Below are positions 2,894-46,196 of a stretch of DNA of 64,000 nucleotides, piece after piece. The notes beneath the pieces are model-generated. The model saw nothing but the letters and a program-made list of their open reading frames with translations. It had not been told where the DNA came from and ran no database searches. Source of the stretch: an uncultured Rhodospirillales bacterium (GTDB lineage Bacteria; Pseudomonadota; Alphaproteobacteria; RF32; CAG-239); NCBI GenBank assembly GCA_902778645.1, contig CACYYO010000001.1, forward strand, positions 2,951 through 66,950, written 5' to 3'. Positions within the stretch are counted from its first letter, which is position 1, and each line of letters opens with the position of its first letter. Made by a program: the position numbers and the translations under genes.

Positions 2894-5071
2894 TTGCAAA
2901 ATTTCGTTCGTTTTTGCCTGCGTTGTATTTTCAGGCTGTTTAAAGTTCGTTTTCGTCTTCAATTTAAGGAAAGTAAAATACCGGGGCGAGGTGTGTATGT
3001 TTCTAACCATGTTTCTTATTTGGATCCGATCCTCTTGTTTGCCTTTTTGCCCGGTAATCCGATTTTTGCGCTGAATGGTCATTTGTACCGCAGTCGTCTC
3101 ATCCGGTTGTTGATGAAAACGGCTGATATTATGTATTTTAATCCGATTGAACCGGGGGATATTAAAACTTTAATTAATAAGGTGAGCGAAGGTCGGTTGT
3201 GTGTTATTTTTGCTGAAGGAAGAATTACGGAAAACGGCAGCTTGATGAAAATATACGAAGCACCGGGGTTGGTCGCCGATAAATCCAAGTCGCCGTTAAT
3301 TCCAATTTGGATTACCGGTCCGCAATATGGTTATTTTTCTAAAACCAAGGGGAAGTTACCGCATCGTCCGTTGCCGAAGGTTTTGATTACGGTCGGTAAG
3401 CCGCGTAGTTTTAAGTTAAAAGATGAATTAAGACGTCAGCGTGATCACATCAGTAATGAAGTTTATCAAATTCTTCGAGAAATGTGTTTTGAGGTTAATT
3501 ATAATCCGAATATTTCTTTGTTTGCGCAATTGATGAAAACAGCCAAGGTTCATTCAAAGAAGCATGTGATTATGCGTCCGGCATTTGTTGAGGATATACA
3601 ACGTGTACCGAACTCTTATAAAGATATCATTATCAAATCTTTTGTTTTAGGTAAATATTTTAAGAAAAGGACTCGTCGTGGAGAGCACGTTGCTTTGATG
3701 TTACCGAATTCTGTTGCTGCAGTTTGTACATTTTTCGGGCTGTCGGCTTATGAGAGGATTCCGGTTATGCTTAACTTCTCTGTCGGGGCTAAGAATATTG
3801 CTTCTATGTGTAATACAGCACAAGTTAAGATGATTATTACGTCGCTGACTTTTATTAAAACAGCTAAGTTAGAGGCGGCTGTTGAGGTATTGAAGGCGGC
3901 AGGCTATAATGTTGTTTATTTGGAGTCTTTGCGTAAACATGTTGGTCTTATTACTAAAATAAATGCCTTTTTACGTTATAAGATCAAGCGTGTTCCACAC
4001 CGTTCGGGTGGAAATAAAAAAGCATGTATTTTATTTACGTCAGGTTCAGAAGGAGCCCCAAAAGCAGTTGTTTTGAGCCATGCTAATATCATGTCTAACA
4101 TTAAGCAAATTGCTTCTATTGAGACAATTAATATTACCGATACAGTGTTTAATGCTTTACCGATGTTTCATAGTTTTGGATTGACAGTCGGGACACTCTT
4201 TCCGATTTTAGAGGGGGCAAAGCTGTTTTTATATCCTTCTCCTCTTCATTATCGTGTCGTTGCCGAGATTGTTTATGAAATCGGTGCGACAGTTATGTTT
4301 GGAACAGATACTTTCTTTCGCGGTTATGCAAAGATTGCGCATCCGTTTGATTTCCACAACGTTCGGTTTATGTTTGGCGGAGCGGAAGCCATTAAACCGG
4401 ATACAAGAGATATTTGGATGGAACGTTTGGGTATACGTGTTTTGGAAGGGTATGGTGCAACAGAGTGTTCTCCGGTTATTACCGCGAATAACCTTATTTT
4501 TAATCGCTTTGGTTCTATCGGAAAATTGTTACCTGCCATACAGTACAAGATTGAACCGGTTGATGGTATTGCAAAAGGCGGTGAATTAGTTATTAAAGGT
4601 CCGAATATCATGCTCGGCTATATTATGCCTGATAATCCCGGTGTGCTTGTTCCTTTAGAAGATGGGTGGTATCATACCGGTGATGTGGTAGAAATTGATG
4701 AAATCGGATTCTTGTACATTAAAGACCGTATTAAACGTTTTGCAAAAATCGGCGGAGAAATGGTTTCTCTTAATGCGGTTGATGAAATGGTTCACAAGGC
4801 TTATGAATGGATGGGACCGAGTTTTGAGTATGGCGTTGTTGCAATTCCTCATGAAAGCAAAGGTGAACAAATTGTTTTGGTTACCAATAACAGAAGTGTT
4901 CAGCAAGATGCTTTGCAAAATTATATTAAAAATAACGGGATGTCAGAGTTATTTTTGCCTCGCATTATTTTGTATAAAGACCACTTACCTGTTTTCGCAA
5001 CCGGCAAGGCAGACAATGTTACATTGAAAAAAGAAGTTTTGGAAGAACTAAATAAGAAACAAGCTGCATAG
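2894..5071 (+). CDS. aas: bifunctional PlsC-type acyltransferase / acyl-ACP (AMP-forming) synthetase, Aas-like
   Basis: N-terminal HxxxxD acyltransferase motif (SNHVSYLDP). C-terminal adenylate-forming domain (ILFTSGSEGAPKAVVLSH, GYGATECSP, YHTGD..DRIKRFAKIGGEMVS). At 725 aa it has the same two-domain layout as E. coli Aas. TTG start. Confidence 0.8.
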   Translation: MQNFVRFCLRCIFRLFKVRFRLQFKESKIPGRGVYVSNHVSYLDPILLFAFLPGNPIFALNGHLYRSRLIRLLMKTADIMYFNPIEPGDIKTLINKVSEGRLCVIFAEGRITENGSLMKIYEAPGLVADKSKSPLIPIWITGPQYGYFSKTKGKLPHRPLPKVLITVGKPRSFKLKDELRRQRDHISNEVYQILREMCFEVNYNPNISLFAQLMKTAKVHSKKHVIMRPAFVEDIQRVPNSYKDIIIKSFVLGKYFKKRTRRGEHVALMLPNSVAAVCTFFGLSAYERIPVMLNFSVGAKNIASMCNTAQVKMIITSLTFIKTAKLEAAVEVLKAAGYNVVYLESLRKHVGLITKINAFLRYKIKRVPHRSGGNKKACILFTSGSEGAPKAVVLSHANIMSNIKQIASIETINITDTVFNALPMFHSFGLTVGTLFPILEGAKLFLYPSPLHYRVVAEIVYEIGATVMFGTDTFFRGYAKIAHPFDFHNVRFMFGGAEAIKPDTRDIWMERLGIRVLEGYGATECSPVITANNLIFNRFGSIGKLLPAIQYKIEPVDGIAKGGELVIKGPNIMLGYIMPDNPGVLVPLEDGWYHTGDVVEIDEIGFLYIKDRIKRFAKIGGEMVSLNAVDEMVHKAYEWMGPSFEYGVVAIPHESKGEQIVLVTNNRSVQQDALQNYIKNNGMSELFLPRIILYKDHLPVFATGKADNVTLKKEVLEELNKKQAA

Positions 5072-5072
5072 T

Positions 5073-5101
5073 AAAAAATCCCTCTGAGAAGAGGGATTTT
5101 T
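5073..5101. terminator. bidirectional Rho-independent terminator between convergent genes
   Basis: Stem atccctct (5078-5085) pairs with agagggat (5090-5097), loop gaga, flanked by an A-tract and a T-tract. Confidence 0.75.
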
Positions 5102-5102
5102 G

Positions 5103-6407
5103 CTATCGGTGTTTGCGGTTTAATTCTTTTTGAACGTATCGTCCTTGATAGAGATTTATACCAAGGGAGTTGCCTATTTCAATAGCTTTAGGGTCGTCGA
5201 CACGACAGAGAATCATCTTAGCTCGTTCAGCTTTATTAACATAATCACGAAAATGGCTGTCTTCATTGATAATATCTAAAAAAGACGGGTGCCAAATAAT
5301 TTTCATTAAATCTGAATTGAGATTCGCTCGGTTAATGTATTGCAATTTGTCAACCGTGATGCCGTCGATGCAAATTTTGTAACCACGATATTGAGCAAAG
5401 GCCTTTGCGAGGAGGTAAGCTTTTACATCGTTAAAAATATCAACAAGCTGCAGTTCTAAGATAATACTTGAGCGTAATGGCGGCGGAATACTTTCATCAA
5501 AGGCCAGAAATTCATCAGACAGAATGGTTGATACATTTAGGTTTAGACTGAAATTACTTACAAGAGAGCCGTCATCATGTTGACTGACGTGTGCCAAAAC
5601 CCGCTTGTCTAAAGTTTCTGTCAGGTGTAAAAACAGCCAAGGATCAGATGTTAAATCAATCTCAGGCATTAATGTGTCGCGTAAATCAGGAATAGAAACA
5701 AATACTTCTTCAAAAATCATTTGCGGGGCAGACTTTCCTATAATTGCGCAGACAGCCTGTCGTCGAATTAGGTTTGAGAAATCAACCTGTTGAAGGCTTT
5801 TTTGTACTTTATCAAGAATGAGCGGTGTCAGTTTGCGTAAAGGCTTTTTGTTTCCTCCCAGAACACTGACAAACTTTGTTGTTATATTTACTTTTGGTTC
5901 TGAGGGGGCTTGCGTTGTAAAAGGTGCCATATGTGTGATTTTATCACACAAATTAAGTAATGATGCAGGGGTTTCATATAATTTAAAAAACGGGGTTTCC
6001 AAAATGTTACTTTTTTGAGCTAAAGACATTTCCTCGTCAAAGGTAAAAGATAAGCGAATTAAAAGCGCTTGTAATTCATCATCCTTTTGTGCAGGAAAGG
6101 CTACTAAGACACTACTGTTGGCAAGTTCAAATATTTTGCCGCCGATTTGTTGCGCAAAATCTCGTAAAAAGGAGGTCGCAGCATTATTAAGTATGGAGAT
6201 GCTTTTGCTGTTTTTGAAAGCCGTCGTATCAATGAGCATTGCTTTAAGCGGTGTTTGAGCATCTATAGACTGTTGCAAATATTCGACAGGACCAAGTTCC
6301 TTGAAGGAAGGCGGAAGAGTTTCTTCTATTGTTTCTTCCGGATGGGTCTCAATTTTTTCTTGAGGTAAAGGCGTATTTTTTTTTGATTTAAAGAAAAACA
6401 TGGTCAC
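5103..6407 (-). CDS. degenerate EAL-like domain protein (paralog 1)
   Basis: The C-terminal half aligns by eye to the EAL motif series: FEEVFV (EAL), SLNLNVS (N), IILELQL (E), ICIDGITV (DDFG-like), MKIIW (KxD-like), LYQGRYV (QG). It shares the block DPWLFLHLTETLDKRVL with the upstream paralog. The track start is GTG at 6407, with an alternative ATG at 6401. Confidence 0.55.
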   Translation of the reverse strand: MTMFFFKSKKNTPLPQEKIETHPEETIEETLPPSFKELGPVEYLQQSIDAQTPLKAMLIDTTAFKNSKSISILNNAATSFLRDFAQQIGGKIFELANSSVLVAFPAQKDDELQALLIRLSFTFDEEMSLAQKSNILETPFFKLYETPASLLNLCDKITHMAPFTTQAPSEPKVNITTKFVSVLGGNKKPLRKLTPLILDKVQKSLQQVDFSNLIRRQAVCAIIGKSAPQMIFEEVFVSIPDLRDTLMPEIDLTSDPWLFLHLTETLDKRVLAHVSQHDDGSLVSNFSLNLNVSTILSDEFLAFDESIPPPLRSSIILELQLVDIFNDVKAYLLAKAFAQYRGYKICIDGITVDKLQYINRANLNSDLMKIIWHPSFLDIINEDSHFRDYVNKAERAKMILCRVDDPKAIEIGNSLGINLYQGRYVQKELNRKHR

Positions 6408-6408
6408 C

Positions 6409-7692
6409 TCACAGTAATTTTTCTAAAACTTGGTGTTGTGTACAAAACTGACGTTCACGACCAGATAATAATCTCTTGCGCTTGAGACAGTCCTTAGCGG
6501 TACATTTGTCAGCATCGGGGCATTGACGCCGTATCATCGCTACTTCTAAGTCGTCCATAAACGGACCTTGAAATGAGTTGATTCCGTGCCGGAGCCCCCA
6601 GGATAGGGCTTGAGTAGAATCGCACTTTGCTAAGATAACGTTATCTACACCCAGTTGATTAACAGTTGTTTTGACATCTTCGTTATCAGGGCCAAATTCA
6701 AGTAAAGGTTCCCAGAAAAGTTTAATCATATCAGGTTCAAATGTGGTGAGATTAAGCATTTTTAAGGCAGCCGTGTTGACACCGTCAAGTAAAATTTTAT
6801 GTCCGCCTTTATGCAAAAGTTCCTTAACTTCAAAGTATAAAGGTAGATTGTTGAATACGTCAATCATCTGTACTTCGACAACAATTTTATGTCCTTGTTG
6901 TAAAAATTCTTTGGCAAATGTAACAAACTCGTGAGAGTAAACGGATTGCATATTTAAGTTTATACCAATCGATTCCGGCCATTGGCTTAAGTTTGCCGCA
7001 AAAAAAGCCTGAAGAACACGCTTGTCAAGATGCTGTAAAATATAAAAATATAACCAGTGGTTTTCCTGCAAATCAAGGTTGTCAAAAAGCATATTTAAAT
7101 CTTTAACGGCTACGAAAAATTCTTGGAAATTTACGCCAAATTGGTTGGCTCCTTTTATTTTAACAATGCTTTGGCGTTTAACCAGTTCGGAGATATCTAC
7201 TTGCTCCAATATTTCAAGAATTTGGTCAACTTCCCCTGCGTTCAGAGGTCGTTTTTCCGGCTCTGAAAGGGCTTGTTTTTGTGCGGTAGCTCCGTTTTCT
7301 AAAAGTTGTAATACGTAGTTGTAAAACAGTGCATAGGTCTCAGGAAAAACAAAGACGGTTGCAAAATCTTTACTGTTTTTTCCGTGCAATATGGGGTCGT
7401 TTGATATTCCTTCTTTGAGTTTATTGACTGCTTCATCGACGGCCGATTGTGAAAAATCTCTTCCTAAAATGGCAAAATCGCCATTGCTAAGCGGAAAAGA
7501 GACACCCGTTGACAAGCCGACAACCCCATCAAAAAATTTTTCGAGTATTTTTAAGAATTTCGGGTGGCGGTGTTTGGGTTTTAATTTTGAGGCGCTAATG
7601 TACAAAACAGCATAGCCGCTCGGATTTTTGCCAATCCTGTCCAGTGCGCTCAATAAATATTTTTCAGAAAGAACAAGTTGCTGTTTTGCCAT
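6409..7692 (-). CDS. degenerate EAL-like domain protein (paralog 2) with C-terminal Cys cluster
   Basis: EAL-like series: FQEFFV, GINLNMQS, VVEVQMID, ILLDGVNT, MIKLFW, SFQGPFM. The N-terminal part resembles a decayed GGDEF domain (AVLYISASKLKP...FPLSNGDFAILG). The C-terminal tail is RRQCPDADKCTAKDCLKRK...FCTQH. Confidence 0.55.
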   Translation of the reverse strand: MAKQQLVLSEKYLLSALDRIGKNPSGYAVLYISASKLKPKHRHPKFLKILEKFFDGVVGLSTGVSFPLSNGDFAILGRDFSQSAVDEAVNKLKEGISNDPILHGKNSKDFATVFVFPETYALFYNYVLQLLENGATAQKQALSEPEKRPLNAGEVDQILEILEQVDISELVKRQSIVKIKGANQFGVNFQEFFVAVKDLNMLFDNLDLQENHWLYFYILQHLDKRVLQAFFAANLSQWPESIGINLNMQSVYSHEFVTFAKEFLQQGHKIVVEVQMIDVFNNLPLYFEVKELLHKGGHKILLDGVNTAALKMLNLTTFEPDMIKLFWEPLLEFGPDNEDVKTTVNQLGVDNVILAKCDSTQALSWGLRHGINSFQGPFMDDLEVAMIRRQCPDADKCTAKDCLKRKRLLSGRERQFCTQHQVLEKLL

Positions 7693-7783: not shown

Positions 7784-7817
7784 AAAAAAAATCCTACCCT
7801 GATAGGGTAGGATTTTT
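7784..7817 (-). terminator. Rho-independent terminator after recA
   Basis: Stem tcctaccct (7792-7800) pairs with agggtagga (7804-7812), loop gat. The A-tract at 7784-7791 gives a U-tract on the minus strand. Confidence 0.8.
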
Positions 7818-7831
7818 GGGAGTGAAAAGGA

Positions 7832-8860
7832 CTAGTCTTCCTCTGCCGGGGGTTCATCGTCGCCAAGCATTTCGCTGGTCAAATGACCGGCATCAGCGCG
7901 AATCTTCTTTTCAATTTCATCGGCAATATCTTGATGTTCTTTCAGGTAGGTTTTGGCATTTTCACGACCTTGACCGATTTTATCGCCTTTATAAGAGAAC
8001 CAAGCGCCGGCTTTCTCAATAATACCGGATTTAACGCCTAAATCAATCAGCTCACCGGTTTTAGAAATACCTTCACCGTACATAATGTCGAAGTCAACAA
8101 CTTTGAACGGTGGCGCAACTTTGTTTTTAACAATCTTAACGCGGGTTTGGCTGCCAATGACATCATCTTTGTCTTTAATGGCGCCGATGCGGCGAATATC
8201 GATACGAACGGAAGCATAAAACTTGAGGGCATTACCGCCGGTTGTAGTCTCCGGATTACCAAACATAACACCGATTTTCATACGAATTTGGTTGATGAAA
8301 ATAATCAGTGTGTTGGAGCGGGCGACGGTAGCAGTCAGTTTGCGCAAAGCTTGAGACATCAGGCGAGCCTGTAACCCCATGTGGGAATCGCCCATTTCAC
8401 CTTCTAATTCGGCCTTGGGAACAAGGGCAGCAACCGAATCGACAACCAACACGTCAATAGCGCCGGAGCGTACTAATGTATCGGCAATTTCAAGAGCTTG
8501 TTCGCCGGCATCAGGTTGAGAAATCAAAAGGTTTTCAATATCAACGCCGATCTTTTTGGCGTAAGAAGGGTCAAGGGCGTGTTCGGCATCGATGAATGCA
8601 CAAGTTCCGCCTTTTTTCTGAGCTTGAGCAATCACACTCAGGGCAAGGGTCGTTTTACCTGAACTCTCAGGACCATAAATCTCAATAATACGGCCTTTGG
8701 GCATACCACCGATACCTAAGGCGATATCAATGCCTAGCGAACCGGTTGAGATTGCCTCAATATCAACGTTGGCGCTTTGTCCCATTCGCATAATCGAGCC
8801 TTTACCAAAGGAGCGCTCAATTTGCGATATGGCAGCATCAAGGGCTTTATCTTTTTCCAT
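7832..8860 (-). CDS. recA: recombinase RecA
   Basis: Canonical RecA sequence, including Walker A ([12 protein letters not shown]) and the [32 protein letters not shown] block. Confidence 0.98.
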
Positions 8861-10968: not shown

Positions 10969-11286
10969 CTAAAAATCAATATCTGCTTCATAGGCTCTGA
11001 TAATTGCGTTGTCGCCATCTTTATCGGTTTCACGGCTCAGCTCACAGATGAGCAATTTATCAGCATCTTGAATACTGTCGAAAATATTCGGCTCGATATC
11101 GTTTAATTCCAAAATGTCGTCTTCATTTCGGTACAGCAGAGCTGATTTTTCTTCTAAATTAAATTCAATGCGTGGTGTGCTGACAGGATCATTTTCTCTT
11201 TCATACAGCAAGAGCATAACTTCATCTTCATCATTAACCAGAAAATCAAAGGTATCGAAATTTTCTTCCATGGGTTTATTCCTCAA
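10969..11286 (-). CDS. small acidic hypothetical protein
   Basis: 105-codon ORF (or a start at MEENFD) at the end of the ldcA operon. It is strongly acidic (runs of D/E). No family recognised. Confidence 0.45.
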   Translation of the reverse strand: MRNKPMEENFDTFDFLVNDEDEVMLLLYERENDPVSTPRIEFNLEEKSALLYRNEDDILELNDIEPNIFDSIQDADKLLICELSRETDKDGDNAIIRAYEADIDF

Positions 11287-21398: not shown

Positions 21399-21484
21399 TG
21401 GTGCGACCGAGAAGACTTGAACTTCCATGAACTTAGTTCATAACGACCTCAACGTTACGCGTCTACCAATTTCGCCACGGTCGC
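21399..21484 (-). tRNA. tRNA-Leu (anticodon GAG), class II with long variable arm, CCA encoded
   Basis: Hand-folded cloverleaf: acceptor GCGACCG/CGGTCGC; D-stem GCG/CGC; anticodon stem TAACG/CGTTA with loop TTGAGGT; variable arm GAAC-TAA-GTTC; T-arm GGAAG-TTCAAGT-CTTCT; then A-CCA. Confidence 0.9.
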
Positions 21485-42041: not shown

Positions 42042-45000
42042 GTGAAAAAATTTATAATTATGGTTATCGGATTGGTTACTGTTGCCATTATTGCCGCTTC
42101 TATTTATGTGTCAACGATTGATTGGAACAAGCATAAAGGGGCGTTGTCTGCGCAGTTGGCAGAGATTACCGGTAAAAAAATATCCTTCAACGGACCGGTC
42201 AGTATGTCGGTATTTCCGATGCCGTATATCACAGCTAAAAATGTGGTTGTTTACAGCTCAACCAATCAGAATCCTGATAAACCTCTCATGAAAATAGATA
42301 ATTTAGTGGCCAGACTTTCTTTCTCGGCTTTGCTGGGGGGGAGTTTTGATGTCAAAATGATGTCGCTGGTTAAGCCTAAGGTTTTTATCGAGTATACAGA
42401 AAATGGTCTTAACTGGTTAGATGACGCTCAGACAAAAGACGATGTCGAGATGAAAGATGTTCATATTGCCTTGGATAGTGTTTTGCTTTCGGACGCCACA
42501 GTGCAAATTGTTGATGAACAACACAATATCAATACAACATTGGAAAATTTAAAAGCTGAGATTGTGGCAGATTCTTTGCACGGTCCATATCGTATTGATG
42601 GCAGCTATATGAAAGACAATAGTCCGCAGGGTTTTGCTATTTCGACCGGTAATTTATCTGATAGCTTTGCTTCGAATCTTAATTTTGTTTTGAGCCAGCC
42701 TTCTTCAGATACTTATATTCGTTTTGACGGAACCTTTTTGCTTAGTAATGAGGCCTTAAACGGTAATTTGATGATTGAGTCTAAGAAATTTAAGGAATTT
42801 TATGCCACAATGATTCCTTCGGCTCCTTTAGGGGATTACTGGGATGATAATTTAGAGGCTTCAATGGAACTCAAGGTTAATCAAACTCAGATGGAATTGG
42901 CTAACATTATCCTGAAGTATGGTAAAACGGCCGGTGCCGGCAATATCATTGTTCCGTTAAAGAGTAAAAGTTATGTTATCGGTGAAGATGATGACGCAAA
43001 AAGAGATATTACTCTTAAATTTGATATGACAGAGTGGGATTTGGAGCCTTTTGTTGCACTTATGAAAGAATATGTCAGAGAACAAATGGCAGAGGGGGCA
43101 ATCTATGATCCCCATATTCCGTTTGATATGAATGTTAATCTTACGGCATTAAAGGCTGAATATAATGATCAAATTATCAAAGATTTCAATCTCAAGATGA
43201 GCTTGCTTGATAATGTTTGGAATGTTACGGAGCTGAGCGGGCAATTCCCGGGAAATACACAAGTCAGCGGTGTCGGTAAAATATTTTCGGTAGAAGACGT
43301 CTTATCTTATACCGCAACTGTTGAAGCTGAAGCAGAAAACTTAAAAAAAGTGCTGGATTGGCTTGAAATTCCGGTAACGACAGTTGCTAATTCAACTTAT
43401 CAAAAATCGACATTAAATGCGTCAATTGTCGGTGATATGCGGGCTATTCAGGTTTCTCCGTTTACATTGTCTGTTGATAATACTGTTTTAAACGGACATT
43501 TTGGGGCTAAAAGAGGTCAGCCGAATCATTACGGTTTAGAGATTACAACGGATAATATCATTTTGGATAATTATCTGCCCAGAGTTTTGGTAGGGCATGA
43601 AGAGGATGCCTTGCAGATTATCTCTGATTTATGGGCAGCTACAGGATGGGCAAATGATGTTGATGTTGATTTTAAGCTGACAGCGGGGTTGTTGATTTAT
43701 GAAAAAATATCTTTTGAGAAATTGCAGCTGAGTGCGTCTTTGCAAAAAGGAATTTTGAATATTCAAAATTTAAATATAGAAGATGTTCTTAAGGCAAATG
43801 TGGCTGTTAATGGGGAAATCGGAGGCTTCGGTGATAAATTGAAGCTAAGCAACTTAAATTATAAAATAACAGTTGCGGATTTTGCACCTTGGATGGAAAA
43901 GTTTAAAATTGAGAATCCTGATATAAATCTTAATTTTTTCCAGCCATTTACATCAGAAGGTGTCGTCTCTATGAATACCGGAAGAATTTGGATTAAGGCA
44001 GATAATAGAAACGGAAATGTGGTGTCTTCTTATAATGGTCGTGTCAGTGAAGCCGATGCAACGTATAATCTGGAGGGCGATTTGCAGCTTAGGGCGCCGC
44101 AGATTTCTGATTTACTCAAAAACTTAAAAACGAAATATATCCCGCAAGATGATAAGCTTGGACGTTTGGCCTTAAAGGCGCATATTCTTGGCAGTTTAGA
44201 TAATTTTAAGCTTTCAGATATGGTTATGAGTATCGGTTCTAATATATTTCAGGGAACAATCGGAATTGATAAAATGAGGTCGGTTCCTTATATGGCGGCA
44301 AACTTAAAAATTAATCGATTTGAAGCAGATCGCTTTTTACCTAAAAATGAAAATAACGGAGTGTTGTTTGAAAAAGAGCAAACTGCCCAAAATGTTACTT
44401 TTTGGAGTAAGCCTTATTTAAGTGATAAGCCCTTTAATCTCTCTCAATTTGATAAGTTGCAATTTGCGTCTGATCTAGAAATTAATGAGTTATTGTTTAA
44501 AAATAAGTTGTTTAAAAATGTCAAAACAAAGTTTGAGAATCGGAATGGGGCGCTTTCTCTAATCGGTTTTAAGGCCGGCTATAATGATGGTGATGTTATG
44601 GCTAATTTAAAACTTAATCTTTCGGATGCGCCGCGCTTGAGTGGTGATGTCAGTATAACGAATCAAAAAATTTATGATATGGGATTAGTGGGTAGTGTAT
44701 ATGGGCTCAAATCCGGTGTCGTTGAAGTAAATGCTTCGCTAGACAGTTCGGCACATTCTCCTCGTGATATTATTGACCACTTTACAGGAACGGTCAATTT
44801 GAATATTAATAATCCTGTTGTGGTTGGTTGGGATTTTGACCCGATAGCAGATGATTTGCAGCTTAGAAAAATCAGTGATGGTCTGGTCTCTGTTTTGAAT
44901 GAGAATTTAAGAAAAGGAGAGACTACATTTAATAAGTTTAGCGGCAAAATCAGTTTTAAGGATGGTGAGTGGGCTATAGACAGAGCATCTTTCTTGTCTG

Positions 45001-46196
45001 ATGATGCGTATGTCGATATTTCCGGTCAAGGTGCTTTGGCTCCCTGGCAGATGAATAGTACGTTTTCTGTTCAGTTAACAGATATTAAGACGTTGCCCCC
45101 GTTTGCATTTGTTCTTAAAGGTGATATGGCTCGTCCGGAATTGGAAGTTGATCCCTCTCAAATTACGAAGGTTTATGATGAACAACAAGCAGCAGTAGCT
45201 GCGGAAAAGAAACGCAAGCAGGAAGAATATGAACGTGACTTGCGAGATCAGGTTGAATCGCAAAGAGTTTTGTTGGAAGAAGTTAAGGGACTGTTTAAGG
45301 AGTTTGTTGAAAATACATATCGTCCTTTGTCCAGCAAGTTTTCGGATGAAAAATATAAAGAAGCATTGTCTAAAATAGAAGATAAATTAAAGGGTCAAGA
45401 GAGGCAATTTGCTGAAGCGGATAGCATCTTATCTCAAACGGATATAAAGCCACAATATCCCGAGCAATTGGCACAGATTAATAAACAGGCAAAGGAATTG
45501 ATTGGTGCTGTCGATGAAGAGATCCATGCGTTGTATATGCAAAATTTAAAAGATCAAATTTCACGTCATTATCAGAGTATTGATAAACTTGTAGCAGAGA
45601 AAACGCAACTTATGCAGGATAGTTTGGCCGAAAAAGGACAGCAGTTGGCGAAGTTGGATGATATTCAAACAAGCTATAAATTCCAGTATGATTCTCAGTA
45701 TGAAACTTTGGCAAATGCTATTGCAGAGCAAATGAAAGCTTTTGATAATATTGTTCAAAATGCTGATGTTTATTATATTGATGTGGCAACAGAGGACGAT
45801 GTTACAGTACTTGAGAAATATGTTGTGGAAAGCTCTGAAATGCTTGTAAAAGCTCAAAAACAAAGTGAGCAATTGAAAGAGAAGGTAAATGAATATCTAA
45901 AATATATGAGGGACAAGGTTGCAAGAGAAGATGAAGCTTATAAAAAACGGCTGCAATCTGATGCAGCACTGAAGGCGCAAAAAGAGGCTTCTTCTGTTTC
46001 TTTGCCGCAAAATAAAAAAACAATTATTTTAGTACCCTCTTCTGTTGACGAGGGGGGAGACGGACAAGTCGTTGAAATACAGCCGCAAGCCGTACCTGTA
46101 ACAGAAGATGAAGTTTTATCGGAAGATTGGGAGGTTAATTTGTTTAATCCTAATGAATCTGCCGGGACAGCCAGCGGCGTTGTTCGCCGTAAATAA
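42042..46196 (+). CDS. AsmA-family envelope protein with long C-terminal coiled-coil/acidic extension
   Basis: N-terminal TM plus AsmA start (MKKFIIMVIGLVTVAIIAASIYVSTIDWNKHKGALSAQLAEITGKKISFNG), a beta-rich body, and a last ~340 aa that is E/K/Q-rich (EKKRKQEEYERDLRDQVESQR...). GTG start. Confidence 0.8.
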   Translation: MKKFIIMVIGLVTVAIIAASIYVSTIDWNKHKGALSAQLAEITGKKISFNGPVSMSVFPMPYITAKNVVVYSSTNQNPDKPLMKIDNLVARLSFSALLGGSFDVKMMSLVKPKVFIEYTENGLNWLDDAQTKDDVEMKDVHIALDSVLLSDATVQIVDEQHNINTTLENLKAEIVADSLHGPYRIDGSYMKDNSPQGFAISTGNLSDSFASNLNFVLSQPSSDTYIRFDGTFLLSNEALNGNLMIESKKFKEFYATMIPSAPLGDYWDDNLEASMELKVNQTQMELANIILKYGKTAGAGNIIVPLKSKSYVIGEDDDAKRDITLKFDMTEWDLEPFVALMKEYVREQMAEGAIYDPHIPFDMNVNLTALKAEYNDQIIKDFNLKMSLLDNVWNVTELSGQFPGNTQVSGVGKIFSVEDVLSYTATVEAEAENLKKVLDWLEIPVTTVANSTYQKSTLNASIVGDMRAIQVSPFTLSVDNTVLNGHFGAKRGQPNHYGLEITTDNIILDNYLPRVLVGHEEDALQIISDLWAATGWANDVDVDFKLTAGLLIYEKISFEKLQLSASLQKGILNIQNLNIEDVLKANVAVNGEIGGFGDKLKLSNLNYKITVADFAPWMEKFKIENPDINLNFFQPFTSEGVVSMNTGRIWIKADNRNGNVVSSYNGRVSEADATYNLEGDLQLRAPQISDLLKNLKTKYIPQDDKLGRLALKAHILGSLDNFKLSDMVMSIGSNIFQGTIGIDKMRSVPYMAANLKINRFEADRFLPKNENNGVLFEKEQTAQNVTFWSKPYLSDKPFNLSQFDKLQFASDLEINELLFKNKLFKNVKTKFENRNGALSLIGFKAGYNDGDVMANLKLNLSDAPRLSGDVSITNQKIYDMGLVGSVYGLKSGVVEVNASLDSSAHSPRDIIDHFTGTVNLNINNPVVVGWDFDPIADDLQLRKISDGLVSVLNENLRKGETTFNKFSGKISFKDGEWAIDRASFLSDDAYVDISGQGALAPWQMNSTFSVQLTDIKTLPPFAFVLKGDMARPELEVDPSQITKVYDEQQAAVAAEKKRKQEEYERDLRDQVESQRVLLEEVKGLFKEFVENTYRPLSSKFSDEKYKEALSKIEDKLKGQERQFAEADSILSQTDIKPQYPEQLAQINKQAKELIGAVDEEIHALYMQNLKDQISRHYQSIDKLVAEKTQLMQDSLAEKGQQLAKLDDIQTSYKFQYDSQYETLANAIAEQMKAFDNIVQNADVYYIDVATEDDVTVLEKYVVESSEMLVKAQKQSEQLKEKVNEYLKYMRDKVAREDEAYKKRLQSDAALKAQKEASSVSLPQNKKTIILVPSSVDEGGDGQVVEIQPQAVPVTEDEVLSEDWEVNLFNPNESAGTASGVVRRK

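Follow-up and report, generated by a model that had tools for sequence, protein, structure and literature searches.

What is the function of two adjacent bacterial genes whose products resemble the GGDEF-EAL proteins of cyclic di-GMP (c-di-GMP) signaling, with degenerate catalytic motifs in both domains? The genes, here called A and B, lie on the minus strand of a 64,000-nucleotide stretch of DNA (the window) from an uncultured Rhodospirillales bacterium (GenBank assembly GCA_902778645.1, contig CACYYO010000001.1, positions 2,951 to 66,950 of the forward strand). A preliminary description of the sequence had proposed a tandem pair of paralogous EAL-like proteins that act as c-di-GMP sensors or scaffolds, a role that we likewise infer. 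The reading we favor, with a probability of about 0.5, is that A and B are soluble, degenerate GGDEF-EAL paralogues that would act jointly as a non-enzymatic sensor or scaffold, A being equipped with a putative metal-binding tail. The two adjacent minus-strand open reading frames (ORFs) of the description, at 6409..7692 and 5103..6407, are present, and their products are indeed paralogues: BLASTP aligned A and B with 29% identity over 235 aa (E=2e-35), and the blocks said to be shared (RQ...F.E.FV...DL, WL...LDKRVL and QG) all fall within this alignment. Neither protein has a transmembrane segment (maximum Kyte-Doolittle 19-residue score 1.1-1.2; 1.12 for A). Besides EAL, a Pfam scan found no other domains in A or B, and NCBIfam gave zero matches for either.

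The C-terminal halves of A and B are diverged EAL domains. Pfam EAL (PF00563) matched A with 29.3 bits (E=6.8e-7) and B with 23.8 bits (E=3.3e-5), both under the cut-off of 31.3 bits; it also matched all of the A-type (40/40) and B-type (40/40) relatives scanned. Searches of the PDB with the single sequences returned only BlrP1 for A (E about 0.8) and nothing for B, and a narrow profile of A did no better. We also searched with a broad family profile, built from 137 representatives sharing ≤50% identity. This profile matched the EAL domain of RbdA (E=2.6e-7; 6.4e-7 for the PA0861 entry, the same protein), LapD of V. cholerae (E=1.7e-4) and BlrP1 (E=5.5e-4). Thus, the proposed EAL relationship was borne out by solved structures and by 80/80 relatives, whereas the two proteins themselves fall short of the Pfam threshold.

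Structural comparison with EAL barrels agreed with this assignment. The AlphaFold model of A (predicted local distance difference test score, pLDDT, 83) matched solely GGDEF-EAL and EAL structures when compared with the PDB by Foldseek. Its best matches were all GGDEF-EAL tandems (LapD, MorA, PA0861 and PA0575), with E values of ~4e-12 to 2e-11 over 412-436 columns. Isolated EAL domains of FimX, MorA, RbdA, PdeA and YkuI followed at E=1e-8 to 2e-6, with target-normalised template modelling (TM) scores of 0.5-0.65. The model of B had a mean pLDDT of 63 and weaker matches, yet it retrieved the same top structures.

We mapped the EAL motif residues through HMMER alignments to the EAL domains of RbdA and BlrP1, combined with the alignment of A and B. 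(Note that residue numbers of B follow its 434-aa ORF; 2 is to be subtracted for the ATG start discussed below.) As had been described, only part of the motif series is retained. Both proteins keep the Glu of EAL (E191 in A, E234 in B), the Asn of NLS (N245, N289), the first Glu of ExxE (E273, E318), the first Asp of DDFGTG (D303, D348), the Lys of KxD (K324, K369), the second acid of EGVE (D358, D404) and QG (Q375-G376, Q421-G422). The EAL-like domain of A also keeps Q174 and D321. Both proteins have lost the Arg of EALxR (A195, S238), the second Glu of ExxE (M276, L321), the second Asp of DDFGTG (G304, G349), the Asp of KxD (F326, I371) and the catalytic-base Glu of EGVE (A355, C401). The segments in which the description had placed the EGVE and KxD replacements are present, ILAKCDS and MIKLFW in A, ILCRVDD and MKIIW in B. 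A proper alignment left the catalytic set incomplete and added the losses at the second DDFGTG Asp, now Gly, and at the EALxR Arg, now Ala or Ser. The retained set makes up the first metal site plus the catalytic Lys; missing are the ligands of the second metal, the general base and the Arg that binds substrate. This Arg, from the EALxR motif, contacts c-di-GMP in solved EAL complexes.

The pattern is a property of the whole family. Across the 137 sequences, E191 and G376 are invariant, and Q174, N245, E273, D303, D321, K324 and Q375 are ≥90% conserved. The acid at the second EGVE position (D358 in A, D404 in B) is conserved as well, as judged from the 40-member gut-clade alignments only. The lost positions are as fixed as the retained ones: the position of the EGVE Glu is Ala in 40/40 A-type and Cys in 40/40 B-type relatives, and that of the EALxR Arg is Ala or Ser throughout the family. 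Since A and B have neither a catalytic Glu nor second-metal ligands, canonical two-metal hydrolysis of c-di-GMP by either protein is unlikely. Absence of the EGVE base is the field's criterion for predicting an inactive EAL domain (PMC12900916). On the other side of the map, the four first-metal ligands (Glu, Asn, Glu, Asp), the Lys and QG are conserved throughout the family, which indicates a functional pocket, predicted to be preserved and still to bind metal and probably a phosphate-bearing ligand.

The N-terminal domains are more distant from their proposed ancestor. In A, a hairpin S69-N70-G71-D72-F73 occupies the place of GGDEF, and S35, L37, D72 and D99 are conserved in the family. The modeled domain runs in the order beta-alpha-beta-beta-alpha-beta-alpha, with the SNGD hairpin between strands 64-67 and 73-78. 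The N-domain of the B model is well predicted (pLDDT about 90) and has the same order of helices and strands; the B model also weakly matched isolated GGDEF and adenylyl cyclase domains. Sequence searches were largely silent. Pfam GGDEF (PF00990) gave no match at E≤10 for A, B, 80 full-length relatives or 41 isolated N-domains, and a single family member matched GGDEF_2 at 0.23. No GGDEF protein was found when an N-domain profile was compared with the PDB, the best match being the thioesterase PaaI (E=0.02), which we do not consider credible.

We also compared profiles directly. As a reference, we collected 12 diverse plasmid-borne GGDEF regions by tblastn of plasmids, using a PleD GGDEF sequence as bait; all 12 were verified as PF00990 (best E=5.5e-53). 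The program hhalign aligned the N-domain with these 12 domains at a probability of 64.8% (E=6.2e-5, score 33.1, 121 columns). Control scores were 12.0 ± 2.0 for 100 column shuffles (maximum 16.2) and 22.1 for a reversed profile. The register placed FPLSNGDFAILG opposite CRFGGEEFVVVM, so that SNGDF faces GGEEF within xRxGGEEFvvvx, and ISASKLK opposite TDIDRFK, where SxS-L-K faces DxD-F-K with S33 and S35 at the DxD positions. The GHxxGD segment is missing from the N-domain, as a gap of six residues in the alignment, and no RxxD (I-site) precedes the SNGDF hairpin of A. Note that Foldseek also aligned the N-domain of A with the BLUF domain of BlrP1. The earlier suggestion of a decayed GGDEF domain was therefore supported by an alignment in exactly the proposed register and scoring above all 100 shuffles, but not by the Pfam GGDEF model. 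These comparisons lend moderate support to a real but distant GGDEF ancestry of the N-domains, with loss of every catalytic, GTP-binding and I-site residue. On this alignment, no GTP-binding or catalytic GGDEF residue is left, so that neither A nor B can synthesize c-di-GMP.

Is the pair a recent casualty or an established family? A word-indexed search found 329 full-length relatives of A and 629 of B. Those with a named source come from uncultured Alphaproteobacteria, and a genome scan located them in metagenome-assembled genomes of gut and rumen Alphaproteobacteria, for example Candidatus Scatocola. An exhaustive profile search extended the family to 1427 representatives (clusters at 50% identity) with E≤1e-3, of which 442 reached E≤1e-30. 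Named members occur in Magnetospirillum gryphiswaldense, Paramagnetospirillum, Candidatus Terasakiella magnetica, Phaeospirillum and Caenispirillum, where they are annotated as 'hypothetical' or 'EAL domain-containing'. The conserved columns are invariant across members with only about 25% identity.

The pairing itself is conserved. The order A-then-B was found in 19/19 gut-clade genomes. M. gryphiswaldense (CP027527.1, locus L020, 8001-10584) and another five loci of Rhodospirillales type share it, with gaps of -4 to +27 nt. In one metagenomic protein (P0245, 712 aa), residues 9-413 form an A-type module and residues 434-688 a B-type EAL-like module that lacks the N-domain of B; this natural fusion is a single instance. 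Within the gut clade, the two domains of A are 58% and 59% identical, and B combines a fast-evolving N-domain at 25% with an EAL-like domain at 79%, the most conserved part of the pair. By these patterns of conservation, A and B belong to an old family under selection and are not recently decayed genes. Our literature searches found no description of this family. The census of alphaproteobacterial c-di-GMP proteins relies on Pfam hits and would miss it (PMC9756655).

A carries a C-terminal feature of its own, a four-cysteine (Cys4) tail. The CPDADKCTAKDC...C cluster occurs in A alone of the two proteins, at C391, C397, C402 and C417, out of five cysteines in A altogether. The four tail cysteines are invariant in 40/40 relatives, and the spacing C-x5-C-x4-C-x14-C recurs in 126/129 tails across deeply diverged A-type proteins, with a consensus of roughly C-P-x4-C-T-L-x-Q-C-x2-R-R-x4-G-x2-R-x2-C. 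Among the best 150 family matches, 40 were A-type with the Cys4 tail, 32 A-type without it and 78 B-type. The tail matched no Pfam family, and its resemblance to TAZ (HCCC) and Nab2 (CCCH) zinc fingers in the PDB was weak and non-significant (E=0.05-0.3). A conserved His as fourth or fifth ligand was considered and rejected, as H421 varies among the 40 relatives. Thus, of the cluster of cysteines and a histidine originally proposed, the four cysteines and their absence from the paralogue held, and the histidine did not. Most likely, this putative single metal site holds Zn or an Fe-S cluster.

The two genes form a compact unit (Table 1). The longest ORF of B, 5103..6407, would begin with a GTG and encode 434 aa. 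We rejected this start, since an ATG at 6401 has GAGG 5 nt upstream and public gene calls carry the exact 432-aa product. Translation of B almost certainly begins at this ATG, on the evidence of start-codon context and these calls. The GAGG overlaps the TGA stop codon of A. The distance between the genes is then 7 nt and not 1 nt as previously stated. The operon begins, as described, after the terminator of recA (recA itself at 7832..8860, upstream of A), a 14-bp hairpin and T-run reading from 7817 to 7787. At the other end, a hairpin read from the sequence lies precisely in the interval that separates the stop codon of B (5103) from that of a convergent aas-like gene (2894..5071); a consensus terminator scan did not list it. 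With a terminator upstream and a likely one downstream, A and B constitute a self-contained two-gene operon.

Table 1. Coordinates of genes, protein domains and putative terminators of the A-B locus (window numbering).
Feature	Position	Strand	Description
Gene A	6409..7692	minus	427-aa soluble protein: degenerate GGDEF-like domain, degenerate EAL-like domain and Cys4 tail; from ORF, relatives and AlphaFold model
Gene B	5103..6401	minus	432-aa paralogue of A without the Cys4 tail; from ORF, start-codon context and public gene calls
A, N-terminal domain	7258..7692	minus	residues 1 to ~145; putative GGDEF-like palm fold
A, EAL-like domain	6553..7200	minus	residues ~165-380
A, four-cysteine motif followed by basic KRKR stretch	6442..6522	minus	C391-x5-C397-x4-C402-x14-C417; putative metal (Zn or Fe-S) site
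B, N-terminal GGDEF-like domain	5928..6290	minus	residues ~40-160 of the 434-aa ORF
B, EAL-like domain	5124..5795	minus	residues ~205-428 of the 434-aa ORF
recA intrinsic terminator	7787..7817	minus	14-bp stem and T-run; upstream limit of the A-B operon
Hairpin with A-run on one side and T-run on the other	5072..5100	no strand	likely bidirectional terminator; downstream limit of the operon

How might such a pair work? In the reading we favor, A and B would be produced from one tightly coupled two-gene operon and would function as a hetero-oligomer, probably through their EAL-like domains; we infer this because the genes are coupled, one natural fusion exists and EAL domains generally tend to dimerise. 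The EAL-like pocket would bind metal and probably a phosphate-bearing ligand, by default c-di-GMP or a related nucleotide. As in LapD or FimX, contacts between proteins would relay the signal. B would contribute the highly constrained EAL-like core, and the Cys4 tail of A may be a structural, redox-sensing or nucleic-acid-contacting element.

Several observations weigh against this proposal. The GGDEF homology of the N-domains is moderate: an hhalign probability of 65% lies under the usual confidence level, Pfam is blank and a BLUF domain aligned as well. The EAL part of the B model is poor (mean pLDDT 63). Replacement of the EALxR Arg by Ala or Ser in the whole family makes c-di-GMP binding uncertain. 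Moreover, metal ligands kept and Arg lost is the opposite of the pattern in LapD and FimX, and would likewise be compatible with an enzyme or with some other ligand. No ORF with a GG[DE]EF motif was found within the 64-kb window, and Rfam detected no c-di-GMP riboswitch in the window or in six related loci. Three distant relatives (loci L025, L042 and L043) are single genes, and the neighbors of the pair vary by lineage, so that no single output is indicated.

With the Arg missing and the metal ligands retained, three alternatives stay in view: a different ligand, residual one-metal catalysis and an adaptor function independent of any ligand. The last of these would make A and B comparable to YdiV or CsrD, with a protein or RNA partner, the Cys4 knuckle and basic tail contacting nucleic acid and no second messenger involved. 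The Arg that contacts c-di-GMP is lost, which speaks for this model, and the window offers neither a GGDEF-motif ORF nor, along with the six related loci, a c-di-GMP riboswitch. The basic stretch behind the Cys4 tail, the faint likeness of this tail to CCCH and TAZ zinc fingers (E=0.05-0.3) and the persistence of the family in small-genome gut Alphaproteobacteria point the same way. However, the zinc-finger likeness is statistically non-significant, the tail is present in just 40/72 A-type representatives among the best 150 matches, and the strict conservation of E191, N245, E273, D303, K324 and Q375 would be difficult to account for if neither a ligand nor a metal were bound. We consider the adaptor model unlikely, if a serious contender. 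In the enzymatic alternative, the pair, or B alone, would be a one-metal phosphodiesterase that acts on c-di-GMP, pGpG or another phosphodiester. Catalysis would rely on the Glu-Asn-Glu-Asp site together with the Lys, and the missing base would be replaced, for instance by the Asp retained as second acid of EGVE. A complete first-metal site with Lys and Gln at ≥90% conservation across the family, the conservation of D358 and D404, and the contrast in B between 79% identity in the EAL-like domain and 25% in the N-domain, a constraint typical of catalytic cores, speak for such an enzyme. Yet no member has the catalytic Glu or either of the two Asp residues, the second-metal one and that of KxD; the substrate-binding Arg is missing too, and by published practice loss of the EGVE base predicts inactivity (PMC12900916). 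An enzymatic role thus seems rather improbable to us.

A more speculative combination would make the pair a Rhodospirillales-wide device in which a one-metal EAL-like pocket serves a ligand other than c-di-GMP, the tail gates the device by redox state and the output is control of envelope polysaccharide export. One candidate ligand would be a dinucleoside polyphosphate, sensed or turned over, in keeping with an ApaH/PrpE-like phosphoesterase gene that lies divergently beside the pair in several lineages. An Fe-S or Zn tail of A would provide the redox gate, and export would be controlled through the hldE and ABC-2 transporter genes on the flanks of the pair in free-living relatives. We regard this combination as a long shot. 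Finally, degenerate catalytic motifs in both domains could mean that a former pair of GGDEF-EAL enzymes is decaying and that A and B, its remnants, have no present function. Intact full-length ORFs in hundreds of genomes, the ~442 clusters at 50% identity that reach E≤1e-30, columns that stay invariant among members only about 25% identical and the conserved tandem order make this next to inconceivable.

The preferred reading, a non-enzymatic sensor or scaffold pair, has its closest precedent in LapD (Pseudomonas fluorescens, Vibrio cholerae), likewise a tandem of non-catalytic GGDEF and EAL domains, which also headed the structural matches of the A model (6pwk; E=3.9e-12 over 412-419 aligned columns). 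LapD signals by protein contacts, not by turnover. However, LapD resides in the membrane, has periplasmic and HAMP modules and acts as a homodimer, whereas A and B lack transmembrane segments and are two paralogues conserved as a pair. The A/B family also differs from LapD in keeping the first-metal ligands, lacking the EALxR Arg and possessing the Cys4 tail. In FimX (Pseudomonas, Xanthomonas; REC-PAS-GGDEF-EAL), a degenerate EAL domain is a high-affinity c-di-GMP receptor, and FimX EAL domains were the best single-domain structural matches of the A model (target-normalised TM 0.61-0.65; 4fok, 4foj and 4f3h). In contrast to FimX, A and B have neither REC nor PAS modules, keep the metal ligands and show no PilZ partner.

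Other degenerate or cysteine-bearing EAL proteins resemble the pair in part. YdiV/STM1344 and CsrD of Enterobacteria have degenerate domains and serve as adaptors for FlhD4C2 or CsrB/C without binding c-di-GMP. They provide a precedent for a messenger-independent role and have no detectable close sequence relationship to A and B. CsrD is membrane-anchored, and neither protein forms a paralogue pair or carries a Cys4 tail, unlike A and B. The BLUF-EAL proteins BlrP1 and BluF(YcgF) have, like A and B, a small alpha/beta domain ahead of the EAL domain, and BlrP1 is a good fold match. Yet BlrP1, whose catalytic set is complete, is an active phosphodiesterase under light control, whereas the set of A and B is incomplete, and the N-domain of A aligns in register with GGDEF and lacks the flavin-binding BLUF signature. 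In the CSS-domain EAL phosphodiesterases (for example E. coli PdeC), cysteines add redox or metal-type control. Those cysteines are periplasmic, form a disulfide and belong to an active enzyme, whereas the four of A are cytoplasmic and C-terminal, following an inactive-looking EAL domain. Thus, A and B are set apart from all these systems by a cytoplasmic architecture without accessory domains, a heterologous pair, their own set of EAL residues and the Cys4 tail.

Gene neighborhoods differ between the gut clade and the Rhodospirillales, and we rejected the idea of a single conserved partner gene. A functional link to recA was likewise rejected: recA lies upstream of the pair only in the window and in locus L005 and is convergent, downstream of the pair, in L001-L003; it was not found in the other loci, so that the arrangement is lineage-specific. 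In the gut-clade loci L006 and L009-L019, a hybrid HisKA-HATPase_c-REC or HATPase_c-REC gene lies directly upstream of A on the same strand, and a [FeFe]-hydrogenase-like gene (Fe_hyd_lg_C plus 4Fe-4S domains) is divergent from A; homologues of neither gene were found in the 64-kb window. In the Rhodospirillales loci L020-L024, L040 and L041, hldE, an epimerase gene and the gene for an ApaH/PrpE-like metallophosphoesterase, 45-49% identical between lineages, are often divergent upstream of A. An ABC_tran plus ABC2_membrane transporter follows directly downstream of B in four Rhodospirillales loci, and FlaF is encoded near the pair in M. gryphiswaldense.

Three further features of the window were recorded. 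A strongly acidic ORF of 105 aa at 10969..11286 (minus strand; MRNKPMEENFDTFDFLVNDEDEV...) has no Pfam match and is kept in 11 related loci beside an LD-carboxypeptidase gene. A very long ORF of 1384 aa with an N-terminal hydrophobic stretch occupies 42042..46196 on the plus strand. A tRNA gene at 21402..21484 (minus strand) is the sole Rfam match in the window at gathering threshold.

The study of degenerate GGDEF-EAL proteins such as LapD, FimX and CsrD has in each case brought to light another way for bacteria to read c-di-GMP or to bypass it. The A/B family is nearly invisible to standard annotation, its members being called 'hypothetical protein' or falling under the EAL cut-off, with an N-domain that is absent from Pfam; the evidence supports the name 'degenerate GGDEF-EAL domain protein' rather than 'phosphodiesterase'. 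It combines features in an unusual way: the first-metal site is retained, neither the catalytic base nor the substrate Arg remains, and there is a rigid Cys4 motif in addition. This two-paralogue module has been kept from small-genome gut Alphaproteobacteria to Magnetospirillum, and since homologues exist in the genetically tractable M. gryphiswaldense, its ligand, metal and output are open to direct testing.

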